NCBI RefSeq assembly: GCF_001997385.1
Contig: NZ_CP019633.1
Coordinates: forward strand, 300,001-332,000
DNA from: Sedimentisphaera cyanobacteriorum
GTDB taxonomy: Bacteria > Planctomycetota > Phycisphaerae > Sedimentisphaerales > Sedimentisphaeraceae
Direction: 5' to 3'
Length of the DNA stretch: 32,000 nt
Shown here: positions 3,898 to 28,042 of the stretch, piece by piece
Numbering within the stretch: position 1 is the first letter of the stretch
Layout of the letters: each line of letters starts with the position of its first letter
Notes under the pieces: generated by a model
What the model saw: the letters and a program-made list of their open reading frames with translations, nothing else
Databases searched by the model: none
Told to the model about the DNA's origin: nothing
Position numbers and translations under genes: made by a program

Positions 3898-6105
3898 TTA
3901 TTTCTGCTTTTCTTTCGTCTCAGCAGGCTTTTCAGCGGCCTTGCTTTCGTTTTTCGGCTGCTTTTCCTGCTTTTTCTTCTCCGGCTCAGGAGCAAGCGAA
4001 TCGAGGAATTTCTTCCATTCCGGCTTTCCTGTGGCAGGGATGCTGGTAATTTTTTTGAGGAATCCTGCCTTGTCTTCCTTGCTGATTTCTTTGTCGTTCA
4101 AGAGAGATAGAGTGAGCTTGTGAGCCTGTGAGTCTTTAGTGAAATCTTTTCTGCTTATCACCATCTTCAGCACATCGCTGAAGCCTGAATAATCTTTTAC
4201 TGCAGCAAACACATTCAGCGCTCTGTTCTGCTGCTGAGGGGATAGGGAGTCCCCGCCCATAATTTTTCTGTAGCAGGAGGCAGCCTGCTGATGCATATCT
4301 CTTGAGTAGAAGGCGTTGGCAGCTGTCTTAAATGATTCAATCGAAAGGTTGTTTTTCTGCATTGCAGCCTCGAGCAGTTCCACCTTCTTTTTCTCAGGCA
4401 TATCATAGCTCTGAAGATGAGATACCACAGTGTCAGAAACATTCCCGTCTGTCCGCTTCATTATGCTTTTAAGCGTATCTGCTGCCTGTTCGGGCATTTG
4501 ATTAATCTTGCTTTCGATCCATTTAATGTCTTTTTCGTTGCCTGCCTGAGAGGCTGTCTGAAGAGATTTTGCCAGTATCTGCTCTGATCTGTTATAAAGC
4601 TCAGAGCTGCGGATTTTCTGGAGCAGGTCTGATTTGCTTATAACTTCAAGACAGGATACCGCTGCACCGAGCAGTTTGCCGTTTTTGCTTGAGAGCGTCT
4701 GGCTTAAAGCAGGTTCAAACAGTTTAACAGCGATAGAGCGGTAATGAGCGTTCTGGGCAAAAAGGCCTGCTGAACGTTTGAGAATCTCAGACGCAAAATC
4801 CTGATCTTCTGTAACCGCAGACTGATATTTTTTCAGAATCGCTGTGAAGTATTCCCGCGTCTGATCTTCGCTGATGCCGTTTCTGTCGAGCAGTTTCCTT
4901 ATAGATTCTACTGCTGAGAGAACCTCTGTGCGATTGCCGTTTTGAATCATTTTTTTTGCTGTATTGAGAGCAAAAACCCGCACCTCCGGCTCAACTTTAA
5001 CTTCGGATGACTGCAGGAGCCCGAAGTAACAGCTCTCGGTAAGAGCCTCGAACTGAGCCAGCTTGGCCTCGGGGTTTGTTTCCCGCTGAAGCTGTGTGTA
5101 AAGCTCCTGGGAAGGATTGCTCTCAGCGAGATATACCATAAGCTCTGCTGTGGCTTTTCTCACCTGTGTTTTTTCGTCCGAGATGAGTGTTTTTAGTTTT
5201 TCTTTTATCTTATTAGGTACTTCTGCATTGCTGCGCCACTGCTCAGCTTTGCCTACAGCCCACAGCCTTACATTGAAGTTCGGGCTTTCAAGCTTTTCGA
5301 TGATCAAACTTACCCTCTGCTCGGTCTTTTCTGTGGTGTCGTAGAGCCTGTTGAGCGTGTCGAGCAGCTCGTTCTTGAGCCTGTCGCTGTAGCTCTGGAG
5401 CTCTTTTATAGTTTTGTTCTGAGCTGTAAGCTTGTTTTCAATTATCTGTTCAGGGCTCTTTTCTTTGAGCTCTTTTATGTAGTCTTCCCAAACCTTGCTG
5501 TTGTCTTCCTCAGGTGCCCAGCCCTGAAGTATCTCCGCTGCTTTTTTGGCAATTTCTCTGTCTTTTAAATCCAGCGCAGCAATCATAGCCTCTACAGCTT
5601 TTTTCTTTGTGAGGTTAAGAGATATTGTGTGCAGAATGTTCAGCTTGCCCTTTTTTCCGGTCTTTTCAGAGAGCAGCTTTTCTTTGAGCTGTTCGCTGTA
5701 CTGTGAGTAGTCAAAGCCTGAAAGGCTTTCAGCCCCGCGCTGCGCCATAGCCGCATCGCTTGAGCACAGGAAATCTATCAGAATGTTTATATATTCCTGC
5801 TGACGGGGAAGTTTTTTCTCCCATGAATTGCGGTTCTCTATTGCTTTAAGCACGGCTTGCTGTGATTCAGCGCTGCCTGAGCTGAAAACATCCTTAATAA
5901 TTTCTAATGCTTCATTCTGCTGGTTGCTGAGAAGTATCTGCTTGGCAGCGGAAACCCTCATTTGAGGCTCTTTATCTGAGCTCAGAGTGGATTTGTATAT
6001 TTCCAGCTTTTCATTTTCATCATCAGCAAATGCAAAACGCCTCTCTCCGCTTGCAGTAAGCAGTAGAAGCAGAACAAATATTTGCAGAGTTGTCTTAATG
6101 TTCAT
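3898..6105 (-). CDS. Secreted alpha-helical (HEAT-like) repeat protein, function unknown
   Basis: 735-aa ORF. The N-terminal signal-like segment is MNIKTTLQIFVLLLLLTASG. The body is long, helical and Leu/Lys/Glu-rich, and the tail is Lys/Glu-rich low complexity (PEPEKKKQEKQPKNESKAAEKPAETKEKQK). I recognise no catalytic motif. Confidence 0.6.
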   Translation of the reverse strand: MNIKTTLQIFVLLLLLTASGERRFAFADDENEKLEIYKSTLSSDKEPQMRVSAAKQILLSNQQNEALEIIKDVFSSGSAESQQAVLKAIENRNSWEKKLPRQQEYINILIDFLCSSDAAMAQRGAESLSGFDYSQYSEQLKEKLLSEKTGKKGKLNILHTISLNLTKKKAVEAMIAALDLKDREIAKKAAEILQGWAPEEDNSKVWEDYIKELKEKSPEQIIENKLTAQNKTIKELQSYSDRLKNELLDTLNRLYDTTEKTEQRVSLIIEKLESPNFNVRLWAVGKAEQWRSNAEVPNKIKEKLKTLISDEKTQVRKATAELMVYLAESNPSQELYTQLQRETNPEAKLAQFEALTESCYFGLLQSSEVKVEPEVRVFALNTAKKMIQNGNRTEVLSAVESIRKLLDRNGISEDQTREYFTAILKKYQSAVTEDQDFASEILKRSAGLFAQNAHYRSIAVKLFEPALSQTLSSKNGKLLGAAVSCLEVISKSDLLQKIRSSELYNRSEQILAKSLQTASQAGNEKDIKWIESKINQMPEQAADTLKSIMKRTDGNVSDTVVSHLQSYDMPEKKKVELLEAAMQKNNLSIESFKTAANAFYSRDMHQQAASCYRKIMGGDSLSPQQQNRALNVFAAVKDYSGFSDVLKMVISRKDFTKDSQAHKLTLSLLNDKEISKEDKAGFLKKITSIPATGKPEWKKFLDSLAPEPEKKKQEKQPKNESKAAEKPAETKEKQK

Positions 6106-6422: not shown

Positions 6423-8135
6423 TTGGAAGAAGAGGAAATTTTTGAGCTTGAATCTGGCGGGGTTCTCAAAGAGGTCGAAGTGGCCTATGAGACCTACGGC
6501 GAGCTCAACGAAGACGGCTCGAATGCTGTTTACATCTGCCATGCGCTTACAGGCGATGCTCATGTTGCCGGCTACAGCTCCAGCGAAGACAGCAAACCCG
6601 GCTGGTGGGACGATATGATCGGACCAGGGAAGTATATCGACACAGAAAAATACTTCGTTATCTGCTCGAATTTTCTCGGCGGCTGCTCGGGCACAACAGG
6701 CCCGTCCTCAATAAATCCCGATACAGGGCTCAAATACGGCCTTGATTTTCCTCTTTTTACTATAAAAGATATGGCACGGGTTCATAAGATGTTTGTCGAT
6801 AAGCTCGGAATTGAAACGCTGCTGTGCGTTATAGGCGGGTCTATGGGCGGAATGCATGCAATGAGAATAGCCATAGATTATCCTGAAAAGGTCAAAAGCG
6901 TTGTCCTTATTGCCACTACCTCCCATCTGGGTGCCCAGGCGATTGCCTTTGATGCAGTTGGGCGTAATGCGATTCTGGCAGATAGACAGTTCAACAGCGG
7001 GCATTATCCGGAGGATAAAGGTCCGGACAGGGGGCTTGGGATTGCCCGAATGATAGGCCATATCACCTATCTTTCTGAAGAAGGGATGAGGCGGAAATTC
7101 GGCCGCGCGCTTCGAAACTCAGACGACTACAGCTACGATTTCGACCCTGAATTCTCTGTAGAGACATACCTTGACCATCAGGGAAGAAGGTTTGTTGAGC
7201 GTTTTGATGCGAACTCCTATCTCTACATTACAAGAGCTATGGATTATTTCGACCTCGAAAAGGAGTTTGGCTCTCTGGAAAAGGCATTCGCCTCGGTTAA
7301 GGCAAGGTTTTTTGTGGTAAGCTATTCGAGCGACTGGCTCTTCCCGCCGGCACACTCGCAGGAGATCGTTGATGCCCTTGTATCTAATGCAAAGGATGTT
7401 TCATACAGCAATATCAACTCGCATCACGGACATGATGCCTTCTTGATTGAAACTGATGTTATCGGCCCGTACATAGAAAATTTCGTTTGGGCTACATCCC
7501 ATAAGATTACAGATTCATTTGCATACACAAGAAACAGTGAGCCGGGCAGGTCTGATTATGAAATCATTCAAAACCAGTTTGTTGTAAGCGGGGATGTTTT
7601 AGACCTCGGCTGCGGGGAAGGCGAACTGCTTGCAAGGCTCAGAGATGTAAACAAATGCGATGTTTTGGGTATTGATATTGATACCGAATCTATAGGTTCG
7701 TGCCTGAAGAAGGGTGTCCCCGCTGTTTGGGCGGACATAGAGGATTCGCTTGAGTCTTTCGCAGACGGGCAGTTTGATTATGTTGTGCTCTCGAAAACAC
7801 TGCAGACAACCAAACGTCCCAAAGAACTGCTCAAGGAGATTGTGCGAATCGGGAGAAAGGCCGTGATTACATTTCCGAATTTCGCCCATATCAGCTGCAG
7901 GGCTCAGCTCTTTTTTACAGGCAGAGCGCCTACTACAAGCTCTCTGCCCTACAGCTGGTACGACAGCCCAAATGTCCATTTCTTCTCGATGAAGGATTTT
8001 GAAAAACTCTGCCGCAGTGTTAATATCCGTATTGAGCAGAGAATAGTCCCAAGAACCGCAGGGACGGGCATTGTCAATTTTCTGCCTAATCTTTTCGGAA
8101 GAGAGGCGATTTATCTTATCAGCAGGGAATCTTGA
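6423..8135 (+). CDS. metX: Fused homoserine O-acetyltransferase (MetX) and MetW-like methyltransferase-fold domain
   Basis: The N-terminal ~365 aa match the MetX alpha/beta hydrolase: AYETYGELN, NAVYICHALTGDAHVAGY, GWWDDMIGPGK, nucleophile elbow GGSMGGM. The C-terminal ~195 aa (from about nt 7545) match MetW: DLGCGEGELL, FDYVVLSKTLQ, PNFAH. The track start (TTG 6423) is probably too far downstream; see the finding on the start codon. Confidence 0.9.
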   Translation: MEEEEIFELESGGVLKEVEVAYETYGELNEDGSNAVYICHALTGDAHVAGYSSSEDSKPGWWDDMIGPGKYIDTEKYFVICSNFLGGCSGTTGPSSINPDTGLKYGLDFPLFTIKDMARVHKMFVDKLGIETLLCVIGGSMGGMHAMRIAIDYPEKVKSVVLIATTSHLGAQAIAFDAVGRNAILADRQFNSGHYPEDKGPDRGLGIARMIGHITYLSEEGMRRKFGRALRNSDDYSYDFDPEFSVETYLDHQGRRFVERFDANSYLYITRAMDYFDLEKEFGSLEKAFASVKARFFVVSYSSDWLFPPAHSQEIVDALVSNAKDVSYSNINSHHGHDAFLIETDVIGPYIENFVWATSHKITDSFAYTRNSEPGRSDYEIIQNQFVVSGDVLDLGCGEGELLARLRDVNKCDVLGIDIDTESIGSCLKKGVPAVWADIEDSLESFADGQFDYVVLSKTLQTTKRPKELLKEIVRIGRKAVITFPNFAHISCRAQLFFTGRAPTTSSLPYSWYDSPNVHFFSMKDFEKLCRSVNIRIEQRIVPRTAGTGIVNFLPNLFGREAIYLISRES

Positions 8136-8275: not shown

Positions 8276-10630
8276 ATGAACCAGAGAGTGAGGAAATTAA
8301 GGCAGGAGAGTATAAACACTAAGCCTTTCATCTGTCCCGAGCGTGCAGAGCTTGTAACAGACTTCTACATCAAGGAGCTTGACGAAAAGCTTTCTGCACC
8401 ACTGGCACGAGCAAGGATGTTTGAATATATCCTCGCAAACAAAAGCATACACATCTGCGATGGTGAGCTGATAGTAGGGGAAAGAGGGTCCGGCCCGAAA
8501 GCCGTTTCTACCTACCCTGAAATATGCTGTCACGGTCTTGAAGACCTCGAGATTATGAGCACACGGGAAAAGACCCAGTATGCAGTGTCTGATAAGGTTA
8601 AGAAGGTTTACAAAGAGCGAATCATCCCCTTCTGGCATGGCAGAACAATGCGTGAGGAGGTTTTCGAGCGTGCAAATGAAGACTGGATAAAGGCCTTTGA
8701 TGCGGGCGTTTTTACTGAGTTTATGGAGCAGAGAAGCCCCGGCCATGCCATCCTTGACGGCAAAATATATTCCCGCGGTCTCAATGATTTCAAGGAAGAG
8801 ATCAGAGATAGCATTTACGAGATTGAGTCTGACAGCGAGGCGAAAGAAAAGCATCAGGAACTCGAGGCTATGGCAGTAGCGGCAGATGCCCTGATTATGT
8901 TTGCAGGAAGATATGCAGACTGCGCAGCAGAGCTTGCAAAGAATGAAAGCAGCAGTGTAAGAAAAGAACAGCTGCTCGAGATTGAAAGAATTTGCAGGAA
9001 AGTGCCAGCTTCAAAGCCCGATACCTTCCGCGAAGCCCTGCAGATGTACTGGTTCATCCATCTGGGCGTAATCATCGAGACAAACCCGTGGGATTCATAC
9101 AACCCCGGCAGGATAGACCAGCACCTTATGCCATTCTATGAGAAAGAAATTCAAGCAGGCGAGCTTACAAAAGAACAGGCTGTTGAGCTTCTTGAATGCT
9201 TCTGGATAAAATTCAACAACCATCCCGCTCCGCCTAAAGTTGGCATTACGGAAGAACAGAGCGGCACATACACCGATTTTTCTCTGATTAATGTTGGCGG
9301 CGTCCTCCCCGAGGACGGTTCTGATGCTGTTAATGAGCTCTCGTATATAATTTTGGATGTAGTGGAAGAAATGAAGCTCACCCAGCCCAGCTCCTGCATT
9401 CAGCTCAGCGAGAAAAATCCCGACAAATTCCTCGAAAGAGCCTGCAAGGTGATTTGCGAGGGGTTCGGCCAGCCCAGCGTGTTCAATACCGACGTTATAA
9501 TAAAAGAAATGCTCAATGCAGGAAAATCTCTTGAAGACGCAAGAAACGGAGGCCCTAGCGGCTGTGTTACGGTAAGCGCTTTCGGGAAGGAAAGCTGCAT
9601 TCTCACCGGCTACTGCAATATGCCTAAAATCTTCGAGATTACCATAAATGCCGGCGTTGACCCGCGTACAGGAAATCAGGTGGGGCTGAAAACAAAACCT
9701 CCAGAACAGATCGAAAGCTTCGATGAATTTCTCGAGCAGTATAAGCGGCAGCTGAACTACTTTATAGATTTAAAGATAGAGCTTAACAGCGAGATAGAAA
9801 GGCTTTATGCAGAGCGTATGCCGGTTCCGTTTATGTCTCTGCTTGTTGATGACTGCATTAATCGAGGCCTCGACTACCATAACGGAGGCCCGAGATACAA
9901 CCCCACTTACATACAGGGCGTTGGTCTTGGCTCAGCGGCTGATGCGTTTGCAGGCCTGAAGTACAACGTGTTCGATAAGAAGAACGTATCTTTCAAAGAG
10001 CTTGCCGAAGCCTTAAAGAGCAACTTCAAGGATAATGAATATCTCCGTCAGCAGCTGCTGAACAAAACCCCTAAATACGGCAACGACGACGAATATGCCG
10101 ACCAGATCGCCAAGAATGTCTTCCAGATGTACTATGATGCATTAGACGGAAAGCCAAATACAAAGGGCGGGTTATACAAGGTAAACCTTCTGCCCACAAC
10201 ATCTCATATTTATTTCGGCTCCGTAACAGGGGCCTTGCCTTCAGGCAGGAAAGCAGGAGAGCCGCTCTCAGACGGTATTTCTCCCACGCAGGGAGCCGAT
10301 CATGTTGGGCCTACGGGAGTTATAAAAAGCGCAGCCTGTTTCGATCATTCGCTCACAGGCGGTACGCTTCTGAATATGAAGTTCAGTCCGGAGCTTATGA
10401 AGGACAAAGGAGTAAAGGCGCTTGCAGACCTTGTGCGGTCTTATTTTAAGCTGGGCGGACATCATATCCAGTTTAATGTTGTGGACAAAGAAACGCTTCT
10501 TGATGCCCAGCAGAATCCCGAAAAGCATAAAGACCTGATTGTCAGAGTAGCAGGATACAGCGATTATTTTGTTGTATTGGGACGCGATCTGCAAAACGAG
10601 ATTATAAAACGCACTGAACAGGCAGTTTGA
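8276..10630 (+). CDS. Glycyl-radical enzyme, PFL2/glycerol-dehydratase-like family, substrate unknown
   Basis: 784-aa ORF. The C-terminal glycyl-radical fingerprint is IVRVAGYSDYF (Gly760, nt 10553-10555). The putative thiyl-radical loop is GGPSGCVTV (Cys430, nt 9563-9565). The N-terminus RVRKLRQESINTKPFICPERAELVTDFY is typical of the PFL2 family. Confidence 0.88.
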   Translation: MNQRVRKLRQESINTKPFICPERAELVTDFYIKELDEKLSAPLARARMFEYILANKSIHICDGELIVGERGSGPKAVSTYPEICCHGLEDLEIMSTREKTQYAVSDKVKKVYKERIIPFWHGRTMREEVFERANEDWIKAFDAGVFTEFMEQRSPGHAILDGKIYSRGLNDFKEEIRDSIYEIESDSEAKEKHQELEAMAVAADALIMFAGRYADCAAELAKNESSSVRKEQLLEIERICRKVPASKPDTFREALQMYWFIHLGVIIETNPWDSYNPGRIDQHLMPFYEKEIQAGELTKEQAVELLECFWIKFNNHPAPPKVGITEEQSGTYTDFSLINVGGVLPEDGSDAVNELSYIILDVVEEMKLTQPSSCIQLSEKNPDKFLERACKVICEGFGQPSVFNTDVIIKEMLNAGKSLEDARNGGPSGCVTVSAFGKESCILTGYCNMPKIFEITINAGVDPRTGNQVGLKTKPPEQIESFDEFLEQYKRQLNYFIDLKIELNSEIERLYAERMPVPFMSLLVDDCINRGLDYHNGGPRYNPTYIQGVGLGSAADAFAGLKYNVFDKKNVSFKELAEALKSNFKDNEYLRQQLLNKTPKYGNDDEYADQIAKNVFQMYYDALDGKPNTKGGLYKVNLLPTTSHIYFGSVTGALPSGRKAGEPLSDGISPTQGADHVGPTGVIKSAACFDHSLTGGTLLNMKFSPELMKDKGVKALADLVRSYFKLGGHHIQFNVVDKETLLDAQQNPEKHKDLIVRVAGYSDYFVVLGRDLQNEIIKRTEQAV

Positions 10631-10767: not shown

Positions 10768-11685
10768 ATGAAACTGTTCCGTATTGTTTTTACAGCGTCG
10801 TTTGTTTGTGCTGCAGTCCTTCTTACAGGCTGCCAAACAGCAGAATTCACAATGAATTATCAGCCAGGTGAGGTTGATACATTCAAGGTGCTTCAGGAAA
10901 CCACAAAGGAGGTGAGCTTTGAACAGCCTTCAAAAGAAAAGAGCAAGCTCGACAGAAATGTAGGAAGAGTTGAGATGGTTTTCGACCAGAAGGTTGATTC
11001 AGTTAAGCCTGACGGCACGGCAATCCTTGATATTACTGTAAAAGAGCTTGTGTTCTTCTCGAAAAACAGCAAAGGGGTTAATGTAGATTTCAACAGCAAA
11101 GAGGACAAAGGCGGGACGCTCGCCTCTCTTATTGGTGAGTCTTACAAAATATCCATGTCCCCCGACGGTACTGTTGAAGTGGTGGACAAAGAAGACATTA
11201 TGAAAAAATGCCGCAGCAGAGAGGCCAAAACAATCTTCAAGGATGAATACATTATCAAAAGGCATACCATAAGAGGCATTCCAAAGCCCGGAACTGCTGT
11301 AAGCAAAGGGAAGTCTTGGGTTAGGTATTCTTCAAGCCCGAAGGGTGCTCTCGATGCAAAGGCGTTTAAGAAAACTTATAATGTTAAACAGATGAAAGAC
11401 GGCACCGCTCACGTAAAAATGACCGGCTCGCAGACTAATAAAGAAATAGAAGGTCTCGATGTTGGTTCAGGTTCTATGGGCTTTATGGCAAACATTTTCG
11501 ACACCAAAGACACCTTGGAAGGCAGTATGGTTTACGATACAGAAACCGGCGAGGTGGTTAAGTCTGAGGAGCATTTGGTAAGCGAGCACGTTGCAGCTGA
11601 GCAGCCCAAAGACGGCGATCCTGAAAAAGGCCCTGATGTTTTAACTATGAAATTTATTCATAAGTACTCATTTGAAAAGATTTGA
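10768..11685 (+). CDS. Lipoprotein, function unknown (paralog of the next gene)
   Basis: The ORF track starts at 10744. I prefer the ATG at 10768, which has GGAG 6 nt upstream. The signal and lipobox are MKLFRIVFTASFVCAAVLLTGC. The rest is beta-rich and Lys/Glu-rich, with no recognisable enzymatic motif. Confidence 0.7.
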   Translation: MKLFRIVFTASFVCAAVLLTGCQTAEFTMNYQPGEVDTFKVLQETTKEVSFEQPSKEKSKLDRNVGRVEMVFDQKVDSVKPDGTAILDITVKELVFFSKNSKGVNVDFNSKEDKGGTLASLIGESYKISMSPDGTVEVVDKEDIMKKCRSREAKTIFKDEYIIKRHTIRGIPKPGTAVSKGKSWVRYSSSPKGALDAKAFKKTYNVKQMKDGTAHVKMTGSQTNKEIEGLDVGSGSMGFMANIFDTKDTLEGSMVYDTETGEVVKSEEHLVSEHVAAEQPKDGDPEKGPDVLTMKFIHKYSFEKI

Positions 11686-14528: not shown

Positions 14529-15350
14529 ATGGTAAAAATGGCCGGCAACTACACACAGCTCGATAAGCTCGAAAACCAAAGTATCTTCATAATCCGTGAG
14601 GCGTACAGTCAGTTCAGAAACATCGCTATGCTCTGGTCTATAGGCAAAGACAGCACAACACTTCTCTGGCTCGTCCGCAAGGCGTTTTTCGGCAAGATTC
14701 CATTTCCTGTTATGCACATTGACACGTCGTATAAATTTCAGGAGATCTATGATTTCCGCAATAAGTATGCTGAAAAGTGGAACCTTGACTTGAAAGTTGC
14801 AAGGAATGAGAAGGCTCTCGCCGACGGGATGGGGCCGGATAAAGGCAAGTTTGAATGCTGCAATCAGCTCAAAACCCTCGCCCTGAAGAATGCAATAGCA
14901 GATTATCAGTTTAAGGCGCTTCTGTTGGGAATCAGAAGGGATGAACACGGTATAAGGGCTAAAGAGAGGGTTTTCAGCCCGAGAGATGAAGACTTCGAAT
15001 GGGACTACAAAAACCAGCCGCCGGAACTTTGGGATCAGTATAAAACTAAGGCCGCTCAGGAAGAACATCTCAGAGTGCATCCTCTGCTTGGATGGCGTGA
15101 GGTGGATATCTGGGAATACATCAAACGGGAAAATATCCCGATACCAACCCTCTACCTTGCCAAAAACGGCAAGCGATACCGAAGCATAGGCTGCGAAACC
15201 TGCTGCGGGCCTGTAGATTCAAATGCCCAAAGCATTGATGATATAATCGCTGAGCTGAAGAGCACAAAGGTTTCCGAACGCAGCGGAAGAGCTCAGGACA
15301 AAGAAGATGATTATATGATGCAGAAACTCCGCTCTCTGGGGTATATGTAG
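14529..15350 (+). CDS. cysD: Sulfate adenylyltransferase subunit 2
   Basis: 273-aa ORF with the PAPS-reductase/ATP-PPase fold: LDKLENQSIFIIREAY, SIGKDSTTLLWL, HIDTSYKFQE. Confidence 0.93.
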   Translation: MVKMAGNYTQLDKLENQSIFIIREAYSQFRNIAMLWSIGKDSTTLLWLVRKAFFGKIPFPVMHIDTSYKFQEIYDFRNKYAEKWNLDLKVARNEKALADGMGPDKGKFECCNQLKTLALKNAIADYQFKALLLGIRRDEHGIRAKERVFSPRDEDFEWDYKNQPPELWDQYKTKAAQEEHLRVHPLLGWREVDIWEYIKRENIPIPTLYLAKNGKRYRSIGCETCCGPVDSNAQSIDDIIAELKSTKVSERSGRAQDKEDDYMMQKLRSLGYM

Positions 15351-15386: not shown

Positions 15387-16214
15387 TTGCAAAGCTTTGG
15401 ATTGATAATCATAGCGTTTTTCTGTGAGTTTGTAGATGCCACGCTCGGTATGGGCTATGGCACTACGCTCACGCCTGTGCTGATGCTGCTGTTCGGCTTT
15501 GAGCCTCTGGAGATTGTCCCGGCGGTGCTGCTGAGCGAGCTTGTCAGCGGGCTTCTTGCAGCGGTTCTGCACCACACCCACGGAAACGTGAACCTGAGGC
15601 CGGAAACGATGAATGCACGAAAGATTGCAGAGCAGCTCAGCAGTATTGGTTATATCGAGAGCTTCAAGCAGAATACCCCTCGGCATCTGAAAATAGCGAT
15701 TCTGCTCTCGCTATGCAGCGTTATTGGTACGGTCGCAGCGATTTACGTGGCAGTGAATATCCCGGATTTCTGGCTAAAGCTTTATATCGGCGTTCTGGTG
15801 TTCTCTATGGGGCTTTTGATAATGATATGCCTCAAGAAAACATTCCGCTTTTCGTGGCATAAGATGACTTTTCTCGGCATAATCGCCTCGTTCAACAAAG
15901 GAATCTCCGGCGGCGGATACGGCCCTGTGGTAACCAGCGGTCAGATCCTCTCTGGAGTAAACAGCAAAAGCGCTGTCGGCATTACCAGCCTCGCTGAAGG
16001 GCTTACCTGCCTCGTTGGCGTTGTGCTTTATGTGTACGTGCTCAAGCAGCCGTTCGATTTCCGCCTCGCACCTTGGCTCTGCACGGGGGCTGTGCTTTCT
16101 GTTCCGCTCTCTGCTCTTGCTGTTAAGAAGGTAAGCTCCGGGAATATGAAGATGCTCATAGCAGCGATAACTATGGCTCTCGGCCTATTCACACTGCTGA
16201 AGCTGTTCTTTTAA
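15387..16214 (+). CDS. TauE/SafE (TSUP) family anion/sulfite permease
   Basis: 275-aa polytopic membrane ORF. It has the two-halves architecture and Gly-rich motifs (FVDATLGMGYGT; FNKGISGGGYGP) typical of DUF81/TSUP. It uses a TTG start with GAAGGAAAG upstream. Confidence 0.8.
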   Translation: MQSFGLIIIAFFCEFVDATLGMGYGTTLTPVLMLLFGFEPLEIVPAVLLSELVSGLLAAVLHHTHGNVNLRPETMNARKIAEQLSSIGYIESFKQNTPRHLKIAILLSLCSVIGTVAAIYVAVNIPDFWLKLYIGVLVFSMGLLIMICLKKTFRFSWHKMTFLGIIASFNKGISGGGYGPVVTSGQILSGVNSKSAVGITSLAEGLTCLVGVVLYVYVLKQPFDFRLAPWLCTGAVLSVPLSALAVKKVSSGNMKMLIAAITMALGLFTLLKLFF

Positions 16215-16306
16215 CCCTGCTTTTTGCTTGAAATAATCTCATAAATGCCATACTCTTTTTAATATCATGGCAGCTGAAACTGCTTATAAAAGGTAGAAAG
16301 AATAAG

Positions 16307-17584
16307 ATGAAAATTGACAGAATATCATTAAGGAATTTCCGTCTTGCTTCTGAGGTCAATCTCGAGTTTGACAAGAGGCTCAATGTATTTGTCGGAGTGA
16401 ACGGCTCGGGCAAATCGACAATCCTTGATGCGCTCAGCCTTGCTCTTTCCTGGCTTGTAAGTAAAAGCAAAGCCGGCAAAAAAACAGGGCAGAAAATCGA
16501 CGAAACTGATATAAGATTTAATGAAAAAAGCTGTTCTATTTTGGCATACGCCCATCATGATAAAAAAACATTTAAGTGGCAGGTCAATAAGAGCAGAAAA
16601 GAAAATCTCAAAAACGAAATTTCTGAAATCAACCCATTGATTGACTGTTTCCAGAAGGAAGGTTCTTTCCCTGCTGTATGCTATTATCCCGTTGAGCGTT
16701 CTATAACCGAAAAGATTTCAGGTTCATTGAAGCCTGGTGTTTATCCGCCTGAGGTGATTAAATCCTCACTTTTAGGTAAGGTTGACTACAACCTTCTCTT
16801 CAACTGGATAAGAGAAAGGGAAGACTTGCTCAATCAGAAACTGGCAGAGGCATACCGCAAACACAGAAATAACCCCTCGCAAATGGAGATTGAGCCCGAT
16901 AGGCAATATGAGGCAGTAAAGAAAACCATAGAAACATTTGTGCCTGAGGTGTCTAATATAAAAGTTGATAGAGAAAGCTATTCTGCCGGCGGGGCTTCGC
17001 TGGTTATGGAAAAGGCGGGAGAAACGCTTTCTTTCGATCAGCTCTCCGGCGGTGAAAAGAATCTCATAGCCCTTGCTGGTGATATTGCAATGAGGCTTGT
17101 TAATTCAGCTCCTGAATGCAAAAATCCTCTCGAAAACGAGGGTATTATTCTTATAGATGAAATTGATTTACACTTGCATCCAAGCTGGCAGAGAACTGTT
17201 ATACCGAATCTGCTTGAAGCTTTCCCGAATTGCCAGTTTTTCATTTCAACACATTCCCCGCAGGTGATCAGCAACGTTAGAAAAACGAATCAGGTTTTCT
17301 GTTTGAGGCAGTTAGAGGACGGCCTTGAATCCAGCCACCCGGTTTCCGCAGGAAATGCTCCTTACGGAATGAGCATAGACAGGGTAGTTGAGCTCGTGAT
17401 GGATGATGAGGCGAGGCCGAAGGAGGTAAGCGAAAAACTAAGCAGTGTTTTCCGGCTTATCGAATGGAAAAAATTTGACCAAGCCAAAAGTATTCTCAAT
17501 GAACTGAAAAAAGATATGCCCTCCGAGGATCCGGAAATAATGAGAGCTGATACTCTTATTAGAATGGAGGAGATCAGGAATTGA
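16307..17584 (+). CDS. ABC/SMC-like AAA_15/AAA_21-type ATPase, Septu PtuA-like
   Basis: 425-aa ORF. Walker A is GVNGSGKST (aa 30-38). The ABC signature-like motif is LSGGEKNLIAL, Walker B/D-loop is ILIDEIDLHLHP, and the H-loop is ISTHSP. There is no TOPRIM or other nuclease domain. It is immediately followed by, and overlaps, an HNH gene. Confidence 0.75.
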   Translation: MKIDRISLRNFRLASEVNLEFDKRLNVFVGVNGSGKSTILDALSLALSWLVSKSKAGKKTGQKIDETDIRFNEKSCSILAYAHHDKKTFKWQVNKSRKENLKNEISEINPLIDCFQKEGSFPAVCYYPVERSITEKISGSLKPGVYPPEVIKSSLLGKVDYNLLFNWIREREDLLNQKLAEAYRKHRNNPSQMEIEPDRQYEAVKKTIETFVPEVSNIKVDRESYSAGGASLVMEKAGETLSFDQLSGGEKNLIALAGDIAMRLVNSAPECKNPLENEGIILIDEIDLHLHPSWQRTVIPNLLEAFPNCQFFISTHSPQVISNVRKTNQVFCLRQLEDGLESSHPVSAGNAPYGMSIDRVVELVMDDEARPKEVSEKLSSVFRLIEWKKFDQAKSILNELKKDMPSEDPEIMRADTLIRMEEIRN

Positions 17585-17601
17585 GGCATATCAGGAAAAA
17601 A

Positions 17602-18165
17602 ATGAGTCCTCAAGACTTCGAAAGATGGAAGCGGGGCAGCAGCAGCGCAAACTGGTCTGATTTTACGAAATTAGAGGAAATTTGCCGGAATTTAAAGAAT
17701 TCCCTTTCCCAAGAGCAGAAAGGGAATTGCTGCTATTGCGAGAAAAAAAACGATTGCCAAAACAGCAGGGATTCACATGTGGAGCATTTACTTCCCAGAA
17801 GTAAATACCCTCAAAAAACTTTCGCATACGATAATCTTCTGCTTTCCTGCAACTTTTCTGATTCGTGTGGATTCTCCAAAGGAAACACTTGTATTCCGGT
17901 AGCACCAACGGACCCTGACTGTGAAAAAAGGTTCACTTATACCGGCGACGGGCAGGTTATTCCGGCAGACCCTGAAGACAGCAATGCAGAAAAGACTATT
18001 AAAATACTCGGTCTGAACTCTAAGAGATTAATTGATAATAGAAGGAGTATAATCAGAGAATTGGCAAAAGCATGTCCTGATTATATTTCCAGTGCTGCGG
18101 AAAACTGCAATGAATGGTACAAAGGTTTTTATACAGTAATTAAATACGTTGAAAAGAAATTATAA
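17602..18165 (+). CDS. HNH-type endonuclease, TIGR02646/PtuB-like
   Basis: The track starts at TTG 17581, overlapping the ATPase stop (TTGA). ATG 17602, with AGGA 6 nt upstream, is the alternative I list. The Cys/His core is NCCYCEKK...[13 protein letters not shown]...[19 protein letters not shown]. Size, motif layout and pairing with an AAA_15/21 ATPase match Septu PtuB. Confidence 0.7.
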
Positions 18166-18185
18166 CAAACAGCAAAGGCGCATAT

Positions 18186-19418
18186 ATGGATAATGTACTG
18201 AATTTCGTAATAGTAGGACACGTTGACCACGGAAAATCAACCCTCATCGGCAGGCTGCTCTACGATACCGATTCTCTCCAGCCTGATAAGATTGCCGAGA
18301 TGGAGAAGATGAGCAAATCCCGCGGGCGTGATGAGAATGAATTTGCATACCTGCTCGACCACCTCGAGGAAGAACGCAAGCAGGGCGTTACAATAGACAC
18401 AACGCAGGTTTTCTTCAGCACAGACCAGCGGCATTACGTTATCATAGATGCCCCAGGGCACGTTGAGTTTGTGAAGAATATGATCACTGGCGCATCTCAG
18501 GCCGAGGCGGCTGTATTGATTGTTGATGCCGCCGAGGGCGTTATGGAGCAGACAAAACGCCATTCGTATATGCTGAATATGCTCGGCCTTGAGCAGATAA
18601 TCACCGTTATTAACAAGATGGACCTCGTAGAATACAGTCAAGAGCGGTTTGAGCAGGTTCGAAGCGATGTGCAGGAGTTTCTCGCATCCATCGGGGCGAG
18701 CTCAGATATAACGATTCCGATAGCCGCTGCAAAAGGCGATAATATTGCTAAGCCTTCGGATAATATGCCTTGGCATAAAGGCCTTACCTTCCTCGAAAGC
18801 CTCGACAGCCTTAAAGGCAGGATACCGGCTGAGGATAAGAGCCTCATCTTCCCTGTGCAGGATGTTTACAAGGTGGATGAAAAGCGGATTAATGCAGGAC
18901 GCGTGGAGGCGGGCTGCGTGGAGCAGGGCGAGGCTGTAAAGGTGATTCCTTCGGGGCAGAAAACAAAGGTTCAGTCTGTGGAGAAGTTTCTCGAAGAGAC
19001 GGATAGGGCGTGCGCAGGCGAATCTATCGGCCTGACAACTGAAGATGCCCTCTTCCTCGACAGAGGCGATATCGTATGCAGAGAGGGCGGCGAGCCGGCT
19101 CTTGCAGACTGCTTCCGTGCGAGAATCTTCTGGATGACCAAACGCCCGCTCGATACATCCGAAAGGCTGTTTATACGCTGCGCAACCCAGCAGACACGCT
19201 GCAGTATAGATACCATAGAAAAACGCATCGACTCCTCCACCCTCAAGGTGCTCGAGGAAAACGGCACTAGACTCGAAAATCTCGAAGTGGGCGAGGTGGT
19301 GATTAAAACCAAGAAGGAAATCGCCTTCGACGACTTCAACAATACCCAGGAGATGGGCAGATTCGTGCTTGTGAAAGACGAAAATATCGTTGCAGGCGGA
19401 ATTATCACCGGCCGGTAG
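18186..19418 (+). CDS. cysN: Sulfate adenylyltransferase subunit 1 (GTPase), short form without an APS-kinase domain
   Basis: 410-aa ORF with EF-Tu-like G motifs: [23 protein letters not shown]. The CysN-type N-terminus is [13 protein letters not shown]. Confidence 0.92.
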
Positions 19419-19607
19419 AAAGTAAAATGCGTTAGTATTTTAATATAGGTTTCTATTTTGTTTCCAGAGATGGCCACGGAAGAAAGCAGCGGCGGATTAC
19501 AAACTTACACAAGAGCGGAAGAAGGCTTTTTTGAGCAGTGGAGAATCAAACCCAAGGCCAAGGCACGTTTTGATATTCAAGAGAAGAATGCTTAAAGGAA
19601 CAGAAGC

Positions 19608-19913
19608 ATGACAATGAAAATTGACATACCGAAAGAAAAAATAGCGGAATTCTGCCGTCGAAACGGGATACGCCGGATGTCAGTGTTTGGCTCCGTGCTG
19701 CGTGATGATTTCTCAGGTGAAAGCGATGTCGATGTTTTGGTGGAGTTCGAGCCAGATGTGCATGTGGGGCTGGCGTTTTTCAGGATGGAAAAGGTGTTAT
19801 CGGATATATTTGAACGTAAGGTAGATTTGAATACGCCGGGTTTTTTGAGCAGAGATTTCCGTGAGGATGTAATCAGAGAAGCAGAGGTGTTATATGACGC
19901 AGTGCAAGGATAA
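19608..19913 (+). CDS. mntA: MntA-type minimal nucleotidyltransferase (antitoxin of a HEPN/MNT module)
   Basis: 101-aa ORF. GSVLRDDFSGESDVDVLVEF is the GSx(n)DxD Pol-beta-superfamily NTase motif. It overlaps the downstream HEPN gene by 20 nt. Confidence 0.85.
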   Translation: MTMKIDIPKEKIAEFCRRNGIRRMSVFGSVLRDDFSGESDVDVLVEFEPDVHVGLAFFRMEKVLSDIFERKVDLNTPGFLSRDFREDVIREAEVLYDAVQG

Positions 19914-20241
19914 TATTAAATTACGGCATATGCTCGAACATTCCAGAGAAGCGGTGAAACTGGCTGAAGGTAAAAGCAGGAAAGACCTTGACAGCGACCG
20001 GAAAATGGAACTGGCGTTGACGCGATTAGTGGAGATTATCGGCGAAGCTGCGGCAAGGGTATCAAATCAAACGCAGAATGGGTATTCTGAAATTCCGTGG
20101 TCAGAGATTATTGGTTTGCGTAACCGGCTTATACACGGCTACGATGCGGTTGACATGGATATCCTGTGGGAAATTATTCAAGTTGATTTGCCGGGGCTGA
20201 TCGCAGATTTAGATATAATCATCAAGGAGTTAAGGGAATAG
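19894..20241 (+). CDS. hepT: HepT-type HEPN (DUF86) RNase toxin
   Basis: 115-aa ORF. The Rx4H motif is GLRNRLIHGYDAVDMDILWEII, typical of DUF86/HepT. Confidence 0.85.
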   Translation: MTQCKDNIKLRHMLEHSREAVKLAEGKSRKDLDSDRKMELALTRLVEIIGEAAARVSNQTQNGYSEIPWSEIIGLRNRLIHGYDAVDMDILWEIIQVDLPGLIADLDIIIKELRE

Positions 20242-20497
20242 CCAAGAAAGGTGAAAATCAGTAAGTGAAGCTAATGAAAAGGGTTTCGCGCTGCCTTAAT
20301 CGTATTGCTTCGGCGCTTTCAGGTGGGCAACGAATTTATGCGCGGAGAGGCATATATTTTTTTGATTCCGGCTACATACTATAAATCTTAAAATAGCAGT
20401 TTTTTATTTAATTTGGCTATCTGCGAAGAAGCGGGGCGGTTTAAATCTCTTCGAGAGGCACAAGTACAGATTAAATCAAGTTCGTTTAAAAAAGAGT

Positions 20498-20530
20498 GGG
20501 CAGACCGTTGCGGTCTGCCCTCGCGTTTTT
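20498..20530. terminator. Bidirectional intrinsic terminator (downstream of tRNA-Leu on the minus strand; also faces hepT)
   Basis: GGGCAGACCG (20498-20507) pairs with CGGTCTGCCC (20511-20520), a 10-bp GC-rich stem. An A-run lies upstream (AAAAAAGAGT) and TCGCGTTTTT lies downstream, so a T-run follows the stem on both strands. Confidence 0.7.
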
Positions 20531-20576: not shown

Positions 20577-20661
20577 TGCGGATGAGAGGACTCGAACCTC
20601 CACGGGCGTATTGCCCATTAGCACCTGAAGCTAACGCGTCTGCCAATTCCGCCACATCCGC
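20577..20661 (-). tRNA. tRNA-Leu (anticodon CAG), type II with a long variable arm
   Basis: Minus strand: GCGGATG TG GCGG AATTGGCAGA CGC G TTAGC TTCAGGT GCTAA TGGGCAATACGCCCGT GGAGG TTCGAGT CCTCT CATCCGC A. The acceptor stem (7 bp), anticodon stem (5 bp) and variable-arm stem GGGC/GCCC all pair, and the T-loop is TTCGAGT. CCA is not encoded. Confidence 0.93.
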
Positions 20662-26758: not shown

Positions 26759-28042
26759 ATGGAAAACAAATATCATCTGGAAACGCTTGCAATTCATGCG
26801 GGCTACGAAAAAGACAAGCAGACTCGAAGCGTTAATGAACCTATCTACCAGACCACCGGCTACCATTATGACAGCACCGAGCAGGCGGCGAATTTATTCG
26901 AGCTTGAAGAAGAGGGCAATATATACTCGAGGCTCACTAATCCCACCGTTCGAATACTTGAAAAACGTATTGCGGCTCTGGAAGGGGGTCAGGAGGCGGT
27001 AGCCTTCAGCTCCGGTATGGCAGCGATTGCGGGTGTGGCGCTTGCGCTTTGCAGGGAAGGCGATAACATAGTATCCTCAAGCTCGCTTTACGGCGGAACA
27101 AGCACCCTTTTCACCCACACCCTGAAAAAATGGGGCATAGAAACTCGGTTTGCAGATTCAACCGACCCGGACACCTTCGCTGAACATATTGACAACCGCA
27201 CAAAGATGGTGTATTTCGAGACTATCGGCAATCCGAAGAACGATGTGCCCGAGATTGAGCAGATTGTTAAAATCGCGCACAAAAGTGAGGTAGCTGTGGT
27301 ATGCGATAACACCGTTACCTCAGCGATGCTGATAAGGCCGATTGATTTCGGCGTGGATGTAGTGGTTCAGAGCTGCACGAAGATAATAGACGGACGCGGC
27401 TCGAGCGTTGGCGGGATAGCAGTAGAAAGCGGAAACTTCAACTGGGCTCGAGGAAGGTATCCAGATATGGTAGAGCCGGACCCGAGCTATCACGGCCTGA
27501 AGCTCTGCGAAAAATTCGGCAGAGTAGCCCTTTCGGCAAGACTCCGAATACAGATGCTGCGTGATATCGGTGGGTGTATGGCTCCCTTTAATGCTTATAT
27601 GTTTCTCCACGGGCTCTCAACGCTCCATCTCAGGGTCACGAGGCACTGCCAAAACGCCCTCGAACTGGCAAGATTTCTCGAGGCAAACAAGTATGTGAGC
27701 TATGTAAACTATCCCGGCCTTGAAAGCGACCCGCATTTTATGAATGCTCAGAAGTATCTGCCAAAGGGGCAGGGGGCGATTCTGGGTTTCGGGATAAAAG
27801 GCGGCACCGAAGCCGGAAAGAAATTCATCAACAGCGTAAGGCTTGCATCCCACGTAACAAATCTGCTCGACAGCAGGACGATGGTGGTTCATCCCGCATC
27901 AACCACCCATCAGCAGCTCTCTGATCAGGAGAAGATTGATGCCGGCGTTCTGCCGGATTTCATCAGGGTGTCTGTGGGAACTGAACACATCGATGATATA
28001 CTTGCAGATTTTGAGCAGGCAATCAAGGCCTCTCAGAGATAA
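26759..28042 (+). CDS. metY: O-acetylhomoserine (thiol)-lyase / sulfhydrylase, PLP-dependent
   Basis: 427-aa ORF of the Cys/Met-metabolism PLP family: LETLAIHAG, IYQTTGY, NIYSRLTNPT, PLP-lysine context VVQSCTKIIDG, and HPASTTH. Confidence 0.9.
   Translation: MENKYHLETLAIHAGYEKDKQTRSVNEPIYQTTGYHYDSTEQAANLFELEEEGNIYSRLTNPTVRILEKRIAALEGGQEAVAFSSGMAAIAGVALALCREGDNIVSSSSLYGGTSTLFTHTLKKWGIETRFADSTDPDTFAEHIDNRTKMVYFETIGNPKNDVPEIEQIVKIAHKSEVAVVCDNTVTSAMLIRPIDFGVDVVVQSCTKIIDGRGSSVGGIAVESGNFNWARGRYPDMVEPDPSYHGLKLCEKFGRVALSARLRIQMLRDIGGCMAPFNAYMFLHGLSTLHLRVTRHCQNALELARFLEANKYVSYVNYPGLESDPHFMNAQKYLPKGQGAILGFGIKGGTEAGKKFINSVRLASHVTNLLDSRTMVVHPASTTHQQLSDQEKIDAGVLPDFIRVSVGTEHIDDILADFEQAIKASQR

Follow-up and report, generated by a model that had tools for sequence, protein, structure and literature searches.

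In the planctomycete Sedimentisphaera cyanobacteriorum (Phycisphaerae), two genes matching the ATPase (ptuA) and HNH nuclease (ptuB) of the anti-phage system Septu lie within an operon for sulfate activation. We analysed a 32,000-nucleotide stretch of this genome (contig NZ_CP019633.1, positions 300,001 to 332,000; hereafter the window, to whose first letter coordinates refer unless a locus is named), in which the pair separates tauE, for a TauE/SafE-family permease, from cysN, for the GTPase subunit of sulfate adenylyltransferase. The combined evidence makes it very likely that a stand-alone type I Septu, to all appearance functional, is carried here on a promoter-poor, terminator-less cassette of ~1.9 kb at the tauE|cysN junction of a native cysD–tauE–cysN operon. 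The cassette is an accessory allele segregating in Sedimentisphaera populations, and its synonymous divergence from the copy in Sedimentisphaera salicampi points to exchange between the two lineages well after the species split.

The Septu pair and its host operon

The gene map, drawn from a six-frame open reading frame (ORF) list of the window, reproduced the genes, motifs and 20-nt gap to cysN of an initial annotation made from the letters alone, which had read the pair as a Septu-like cassette inside the operon. On the plus strand, ptuA (16307..17584) encodes a predicted ABC-type ATPase of 425 residues, and ptuB (17581..18165) a predicted HNH nuclease of 194 residues from its TTG start. Residues 1–424 of PtuA aligned with positions 1–417 of 421 of the PADLOC profile PDLC00271 (E = 1.2 × 10−118), and dozens of other PADLOC PtuA profiles also matched. 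The Pfam families AAA_15 (PF13175) and AAA_21 (PF13304) scored above their cutoffs, with SMC_N also found; the Walker A (GVNGSGKST), signature (LSGGEK), Walker B (ILIDEID) and H-loop (STHSP) motifs are intact; and PtuA chains in the PDB (9n69, 9kjx and 8ee4) were matched at E values of 1 × 10−42 to 1 × 10−35. PtuB matched PADLOC PDLC00332 (E = 2.2 × 10−46), NCBIfam TIGR02646 (88.7 bits; cutoff 52.15) and the PtuB chain 8ee7_C (E = 2.9 × 10−13), and its CCYCE, H66-x-E68-H69, N85, C90 and C96 are invariant among five aligned PtuB sequences. The solved structures matched by both proteins include E. coli Septu (8EE4/8EE7) and retron I-A complexes (9KJX and 9VH1). No Pfam HNH model reached threshold on the window PtuB, as is usual for the TIGR02646-type family; of the homologues introduced below, the PtuB of contig L088 likewise had no Pfam HNH match and that of L081 only a sub-threshold match to HNH_5.

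In gene order, too, the pair follows the known arrangement, with ptuA first and ptuB adjacent on the same strand. The initial annotation had allowed for either an overlap or a short gap between the two. The stop of ptuA shares 4 nt (TTGA) with the TTG start of ptuB, an overlap length also seen in the L081, L087 and L088 pairs, and the alternative ATG at 17602 would give a PtuB of 187 residues. The overlapping start is supported because an N-terminal M-[RK]-[HR]-I-x-K is kept in five PtuB homologues and the PADLOC profile aligns from PtuB residue 1; the gene caller used for the S. salicampi contig chose the downstream ATG.

These matches bear out the earlier Septu call, and the pair is best assigned to stand-alone type I (retron-free) Septu, a known system and in itself an ordinary one. 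As in type I Septu of E. coli (PDB 8EE4/8EE7; Doron 2018 and Li et al. 2024, cited through PMC12640716), the ATPase and HNH genes form a co-oriented, overlapping pair, with ABC ATPase motifs in PtuA and the TIGR02646 HNH core CCYCE...HxEH...N...C in PtuB. Unlike the E. coli system, the window proteins are distant from the solved ones (E = 1 × 10−35 and 3 × 10−13), come from a planctomycete and lie inside a biosynthetic operon, not a defence island or mobile element. The further suggestion that the ATPase was a minimal or divergent PtuA did not survive its end-to-end match to the 421-position profile: the solved E. coli PtuA has 465 residues, and 425 residues is usual in one Septu subclass. Within the protein, the C-terminal half is ~57% identical to a class of ~610-aa PtuA proteins (P0002, P0007 and others) and the N-terminal part ~36%, and that class carries a ~190-aa insertion after about residue 178, a pattern that hints at mosaicism at the level of domains or at an insert since lost.

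The operon itself was placed in context using 80 related loci, obtained by a CysD-based scan of GTDB species representatives (mostly metagenome-assembled genomes (MAGs) of Phycisphaerae and Sedimentisphaerales) and searched with the window proteins by tblastn. The upstream anchor, cysD (14529..15350, plus strand; NF003587, 359.9 bits, cutoff 195; PF01507), encodes the small subunit of sulfate adenylyltransferase and is 73–86% identical across these loci. The left flank of the insertion site, tauE (15387..16214, plus strand; PF01925, E = 1 × 10−28), separates cysD from cysN in 20 of the 80 (for example, L001, L006, L026 and L031), and where a contig holds both tauE and cysN the spacer between them is mostly ~10–75 nt. 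The right flank is cysN (18186..19418, plus strand; TIGR02034, 374.9 bits, cutoff 336.1). Neither ptuA nor ptuB was found by tblastn in any of the 80 loci. Because relatives hold tauE or other genes in the gap, we regard tauE as a native gene of the operon in this lineage, where cysD and cysN are not as a rule adjacent; only ptuAB (~1.9 kb) is foreign within the 2.8-kb cysD–cysN gap. The initial annotation had taken the two cys genes to be normally adjacent, which is rarely so here (tauE in 20 of the 80 loci, a DUF2061 gene in ~14 and an ABC transporter in 1).

Base composition sets the pair apart from its flanks. The G+C fraction (GC) and that of third codon positions (GC3) are 0.425 and 0.44 for ptuA and 0.40 and 0.41 for ptuB; these are the lowest two GC3 values among the 24 window genes, and the highest two belong to tauE (0.62) and cysN (0.60). 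The composition of ptuAB is foreign, and an A/T-richness first judged by eye is now matched by computed values. An old pair with native composition, carried at this position by all related genomes, had been named as the case that would speak against insertion; instead, 80 relatives are without ptuAB and its composition is foreign.

The gap has other occupants among the relatives. A DUF2061 membrane protein (~104 aa) fills it in ~14 of the 80 loci, in related Planctomycetota MAGs (L004, at 10292-10616, and ~13 others: L008, L013, L014, L016, L019, L022, L029, L040, L047, L050, L018, L056 and L054), and could be a partner, so far uncharacterised, in the activation or transport of sulfate. One Phycisphaerae MAG (L042, 10858-13426) has a three-gene ABC transporter between cysD and cysN (an SsuA/TauA-like binding protein, an ATPase and a permease), L003 has another TauE-like permease there, and the tauE–cysN spacer of L039 contains tandem ATGAAC(A/T)-like heptamer/octamer repeats (~4650-4790).

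Occupied and empty alleles and the timing of exchange

The closest PtuA is that of S. salicampi (93% identical), for which two genomes were retrieved via their CysN proteins: a draft, NHPQ01000015 (L091), and a complete genome, CP021023 (L090; strain ST-PulAB-D4). L091 reads cysD, an MvaI/BcnI restriction endonuclease gene and a DNA methyltransferase gene, tauE, ptuA, ptuB and cysN; L090 has the same order without ptuAB, tauE being followed by cysN after 95 nt. A 1920-bp segment of L091 (6053-7972) stands where L090 has 43 bp (7930-7972). The flanks of the two strains are 99.1–99.3% identical on both sides, and single-nucleotide polymorphisms (SNPs) between them are absent within 700 bp to the left and 190 bp to the right of the indel. 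The left junction lies ~25 nt past the tauE stop and the right junction within the last ptuB codons, where AATTATAA, with the stop codon, is common to the empty allele. Alignment to the two S. salicampi alleles bounds the corresponding accessory segment of the window at ~16238-18157 (plus strand, to within a few nt), comprising a leader of 67–69 nt, ptuA and ptuB, in all ~1.92 kb. The 20-nt spacer that follows ptuB (18166..18185, plus strand) contains the ribosome-binding region of cysN and is native, being common to the empty allele; its sequence, AATTATAACAAACAGCAAAGGC(A/G)..., is found in L090, L091 and the window.

Nothing at the junctions suggests a dedicated mobility apparatus. A repeat search found no direct or inverted repeats flanking the cassette, no target-site duplication and no terminal inverted repeats, and returned only short, chance-level matches, among them one 15-mer (14 of 15 positions identical) inside tauE and before cysN that is near chance by a rough estimate. 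No recombinase gene lies at the junction or in the cassette, and the folds of the cassette leader and trailer were not significant. Close plasmid or phage relatives were likewise not found, the matches being at most 38% identical, and no vector was identified. The 43-bp spacer of the empty allele forms an imperfect hairpin; since its folding energy is no better than that of shuffled sequences (z = −0.29) and no further copy lies in the loci or the window, we did not adopt it as a repetitive extragenic palindromic (REP) element or att site. The cassette is an accessory allele, and allelic replacement between near-identical strains explains its clean boundaries, whether the event was a gain or a loss.

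Divergence between the window and L091, estimated by the Nei–Gojobori method, separates the cassette from its surroundings. Synonymous divergence (dS) is 0.207 for ptuA and 0.196 for ptuB, whereas six flanking genes span 0.57–0.78 (HIT, 0.649; tauE, 0.780; cysN, 0.569; methyltransferase, 0.637; Na/H exchanger, 0.622; and Cys/Met pyridoxal phosphate (PLP) enzyme, 0.720). A dS of ptuAB so far below that of the flanks indicates that the two Sedimentisphaera lineages exchanged the cassette well after their separation. Within cysN, dS is 0.33 over the first 100 codons and 0.66 over the remainder, and homologous recombination, with one crossover inside cysN, is the most likely route of exchange. The ratio of non-synonymous to synonymous divergence (dN/dS) is 0.15–0.17 for ptuAB and 0.02–0.08 for the flanking genes. 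Constraint on ptuAB is weaker, or selection more diversifying, than on the flanks, which is what one would expect for an immune gene. An insertion without integrase, transposase or visible scar, as proposed in the initial annotation, is upheld by the near-identical S. salicampi strain with an empty junction, the 80 relatives without the genes and a ptuAB dS three times below that of the flanks.

Recurrent cargo at the operon junctions

A second Septu occupies the same junction in another genome. The metagenomic contig L081 reads cysD, a Phd-like/PIN toxin–antitoxin pair, tauE, ptuA, ptuB and cysN, with cys-operon flanks that are 86%, about 76% and 75.5% identical to those of the window, as close as those of the empty locus L001. 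One could imagine a single, ancient Septu insertion at tauE|cysN in the ancestor of Sedimentisphaera-like lineages, followed by vertical descent, fast divergence and many losses, in which case the window and L081 pairs would derive from the same event. This history would account for the finding that two lineages with flanks 75–86% identical carry the same type of system at precisely this junction; the L081 PtuA (P0003) is the best full-length match to the window PtuA outside Sedimentisphaera, a neighbour-joining tree places P0003 beside the clade with the window PtuA, and defence genes evolve fast, as the dN/dS values above illustrate. We nevertheless judge it unlikely, as the two pairs have nearer relatives elsewhere. 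L081 is only 44% (PtuA) and 33% (PtuB) identical to the window but 51–53% and 52% identical to L087, an unrelated contig with a Septu beside a DNA methylase, and the window pair is nearer the ~610-aa PtuA class, exemplified by L088 (PtuB 45–47%). The L081 and L087 PtuB proteins have indels in common that those of the window and L088 lack, and the cassette junctions of L081 and the window are unrelated (leaders of 71 and 92 nt; trailers of 119 and 20 nt). Moreover, L001 is empty, though it is as close to the window and L081 as those two are to each other, and the dS values within Sedimentisphaera point to exchange after speciation. The L081 Septu is of a different lineage from that of the window, at the same tauE|cysN junction. 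In L088 (6001-8453), the genes for the 622-aa PtuA and 195-aa PtuB, on the same strand and without mobility genes, are bordered by clpX and aspS, a further example of Septu among housekeeping genes.

The tauE|cysN junction holds one Septu lineage in the window and L091 and a second in L081, and is empty in L090, L001 and the other tauE-bearing loci that reach cysN. A metagenome scan with TauE returned only five distant loci (37–48% identical) and added nothing on site occupancy. A second accessory segment follows cysN in the window (19429..20480, plus strand): a 1052-bp segment with a MntA/HepT toxin–antitoxin pair (MntA nucleotidyltransferase, 19608-19913; HepT HEPN RNase, 19894-20241; PF01909, PF18765 and PF01934), where both S. 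salicampi strains have 85 bp. All insertions at the operon junctions are co-oriented with the operon. The tauE|cysN junction is a site of swappable cassettes within a small defence hotspot, flanked by core genes, inside a biosynthetic operon. The initial view of a cassette landing inside the operon is accordingly kept as to the insertion and revised as to its singularity: what had looked like a one-off event is one allele at a recurrent defence and toxin–antitoxin hotspot.

The cysD–tauE junction has cargo of its own. Both S. salicampi strains carry there an MvaI/BcnI-family restriction endonuclease and a DNA methyltransferase (L090, 5134-7070; L091, 3257-5193), and L081 carries a Phd/YefM-like antitoxin (633-1128; a weak match) and a short PIN toxin (1303-2101). 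The tauE gene of L081 is split by a frameshift, possibly an assembly error at 2.6x coverage. In a WOR-3 MAG (L055), a gene for a 23S rRNA-intervening-sequence (23S-IVP) four-helix bundle lies between cysD and tauE (~11240-11590).

A quite different reading of the pair, that domestication has turned it to housekeeping or to a sulfur-related function (RecF/Rad50-like DNA repair or operon regulation) and does not serve immunity, is very improbable. The genes lie within a core operon and have no mobility genes with them, the GenBank/UniProt name of the ATPase (AQQ08445.1) is 'recombination protein F', and its N-terminal part matches RecF, Rad50 and SMC. These matches, however, span only the shared N-terminal ABC region of ~50–110 residues and fall far below cutoff; RecF (TIGR00611), the candidate we rejected for this protein, scores 52.9 bits against a cutoff of 172, over residues 3–109 only. 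The full-length matches are to PtuA and PtuB, so that the housekeeping ATPase and HNH-less small protein envisaged as a counter-case by the initial annotation were not what the profile searches returned. The genes are, in addition, absent from one S. salicampi strain of a conspecific pair and from 80 relatives, foreign in composition and raised in dN/dS, and restriction–modification and toxin–antitoxin modules stand at neighbouring junctions. The database name is in error: AQQ08445.1 is a PtuA. Least probable of all is a role for the pair as effectors of a type I-A retron (type II Septu) whose reverse transcriptase (RT) and msr-msd RNA are elsewhere or lost: second- and third-best PADLOC matches include ATPase_I-A and HNH_I-A, the top NCBIfam scores go to the PtuA and PtuB models of retron Ec78 and the best PDB matches are retron I-A PtuA chains, but the NCBIfam equivalogs NF041760 and NF041761 stay below cutoff (315.2 against 500 and 105.9 against 150 bits), the best PADLOC model is a stand-alone PtuA, the match to the retron chains begins at residue 170–200 (chain position ~290) with the retron-specific PtuA insertion missing, the immediate neighbours are tauE and cysN, no annotated ORF of the 32-kb window contains an RT domain and the sole Rfam match there is a tRNA.

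Expression, mechanism and significance

The cysD–tauE spacer is 36 nt only, the tauE–ptuA spacer 92 nt, and the cysN ATG lies 20 nt past the ptuB stop; PtuA, PtuB and CysN have consecutive accessions (AQQ08445-08447). In scans based on the sigma-70 consensus, neither the tauE/ptuA nor the ptuB/cysN junction showed a terminator-like site, and the 92-nt tauE–ptuA spacer had no sigma-70-like promoter. Terminator-like matches inside the operon are weak (those within ptuA have 3–4 GC pairs), and one weak promoter-like site (9 of 12 matches) lies inside ptuB (18032-18061), in a total count not above that of shuffled sequences, and was given no weight. Downstream of cysD, the strongest terminator-like hairpin (20498..20520; 10-bp stem with 8 GC pairs and T-runs on both strands) comes after hepT and faces a minus-strand tRNA-Leu(CAG) gene (20577-20661); this bidirectional terminator and the tRNA gene mark the end of the cys–ptu–mnt gene string. 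The simplest model is that ptuAB and cysN are probably read through from the operon promoter. Defence expression may plausibly be coupled to sulfur assimilation, because no terminator-like site stands at the cassette junctions and every cassette is co-oriented. Separately, genes of sulfur and methionine metabolism abound nearby, among them one for a fusion of a MetX-like hydrolase to MetW and one for a Cys/Met PLP enzyme (6423-8135 and 26759-28042), and a pyruvate formate-lyase-like glycyl-radical enzyme is also in the neighbourhood (8276-10630).

For the mechanism of Septu we draw on PMC12640716, PMC12819146 and PMC13096335. PMC12640716, citing Li et al. 2024, describes stand-alone E. coli PtuA and PtuB as a 6:2 complex with an ATP-inhibited nuclease that nicks DNA, and a phage tail fibre is reported to sensitise Septu (PMC12819146). 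Since all ATPase and HNH motifs are kept, the same general scheme is our best guess for the window system: PtuA would oligomerise and hold PtuB, ATP binding would keep the nuclease off, and phage infection would free the nuclease activity of PtuAB, by DNA nicking or tRNA-Tyr cleavage, with phage replication halted or infection made abortive as a result. At the level of the genome, the cassette would most likely pass from lineage to lineage through homologous recombination, the crossovers falling in the conserved cys genes on either side; this would explain why integrase, transposase, target-site duplications and terminal repeats are all missing. The operon junctions would tolerate co-oriented, terminator-free inserts, whose genes would be transcribed with the operon, and cysN would be read through from the cassette.

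Several points weigh against this account. The hotspot rests on four genomes, with three occupied tauE|cysN sites. The S. salicampi polymorphism may be read as a gain in NHPQ01000015, or else CP021023 may have lost or replaced the cassette. Codon constraint, as opposed to recent transfer, could in principle account for the low dS of ptuAB. Donor SNPs are not seen near the S. salicampi indel (700 bp to the left and 190 bp to the right), so either the crossovers fell very near the junction or near-identical strains exchanged DNA. Finally, the sigma-70 consensus behind the promoter and terminator scans is of doubtful validity for Planctomycetota.

Among known systems, the closest parallels are partial ones. 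With the type I-A retrons (type II Septu; Retron-Eco7/Ec78 and Eco4/Ec83), the window shares effectors similar to the C-terminal half of its PtuA (~173–425) and to its PtuB, but it differs in having no RT, msr-msd RNA or retron-specific PtuA insertion and in falling short of the NCBIfam equivalog cutoffs. The core defense hotspots of Pseudomonas aeruginosa (PMC10250203) likewise have conserved core flanks and strain-variable defence cargo without mobility genes of its own; here, in contrast, the sites are intergenic junctions of a single, putatively co-transcribed biosynthetic operon, the cargo comes in units of 1–2 kb that are always operon-oriented, and two Septu lineages are found at the same junction.

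In E. coli K-12, the type I-E CRISPR-Cas locus lies between cysH and the iap-cysDNC region. That, too, is an immune locus among sulfate-assimilation genes; it differs, however, in its type of system and in lying between operons, and nothing points to a common cause.

A bolder and more tentative possibility is that the cysD–tauE–cysN operon of Sedimentisphaera-like planctomycetes is a dedicated landing pad for promoter-less, terminator-less defence and toxin–antitoxin cassettes, transcribed from a sulfur-regulated operon promoter, with a cargo of two Septu lineages, a restriction–modification pair, PIN and MntA/HepT. Although we think this rather doubtful, it would mean that immune-gene dosage tracks sulfur and nutrient status and that cassettes are shielded from loss, since polar or imprecise deletions would cripple cysN expression, an operon-hitchhiking, addiction-like mode of retention for defence genes.

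Together, these results correct a database entry from 'recombination protein F' to PtuA and document Septu in a cultured, little-studied planctomycete. The locus amounts to a natural experiment, with occupied and empty alleles in 99% identical strains, indel bounds within a few nucleotides and dS values indicating exchange between species; the allele pair and dS jointly show that small defence cassettes can move without mobility genes. An essential biosynthetic operon with several immune and toxin–antitoxin modules at its junctions offers a compact system in which to study the acquisition, expression and retention of such modules outside classical defence islands, and a natural example of recombinase-free defence-cassette turnover.

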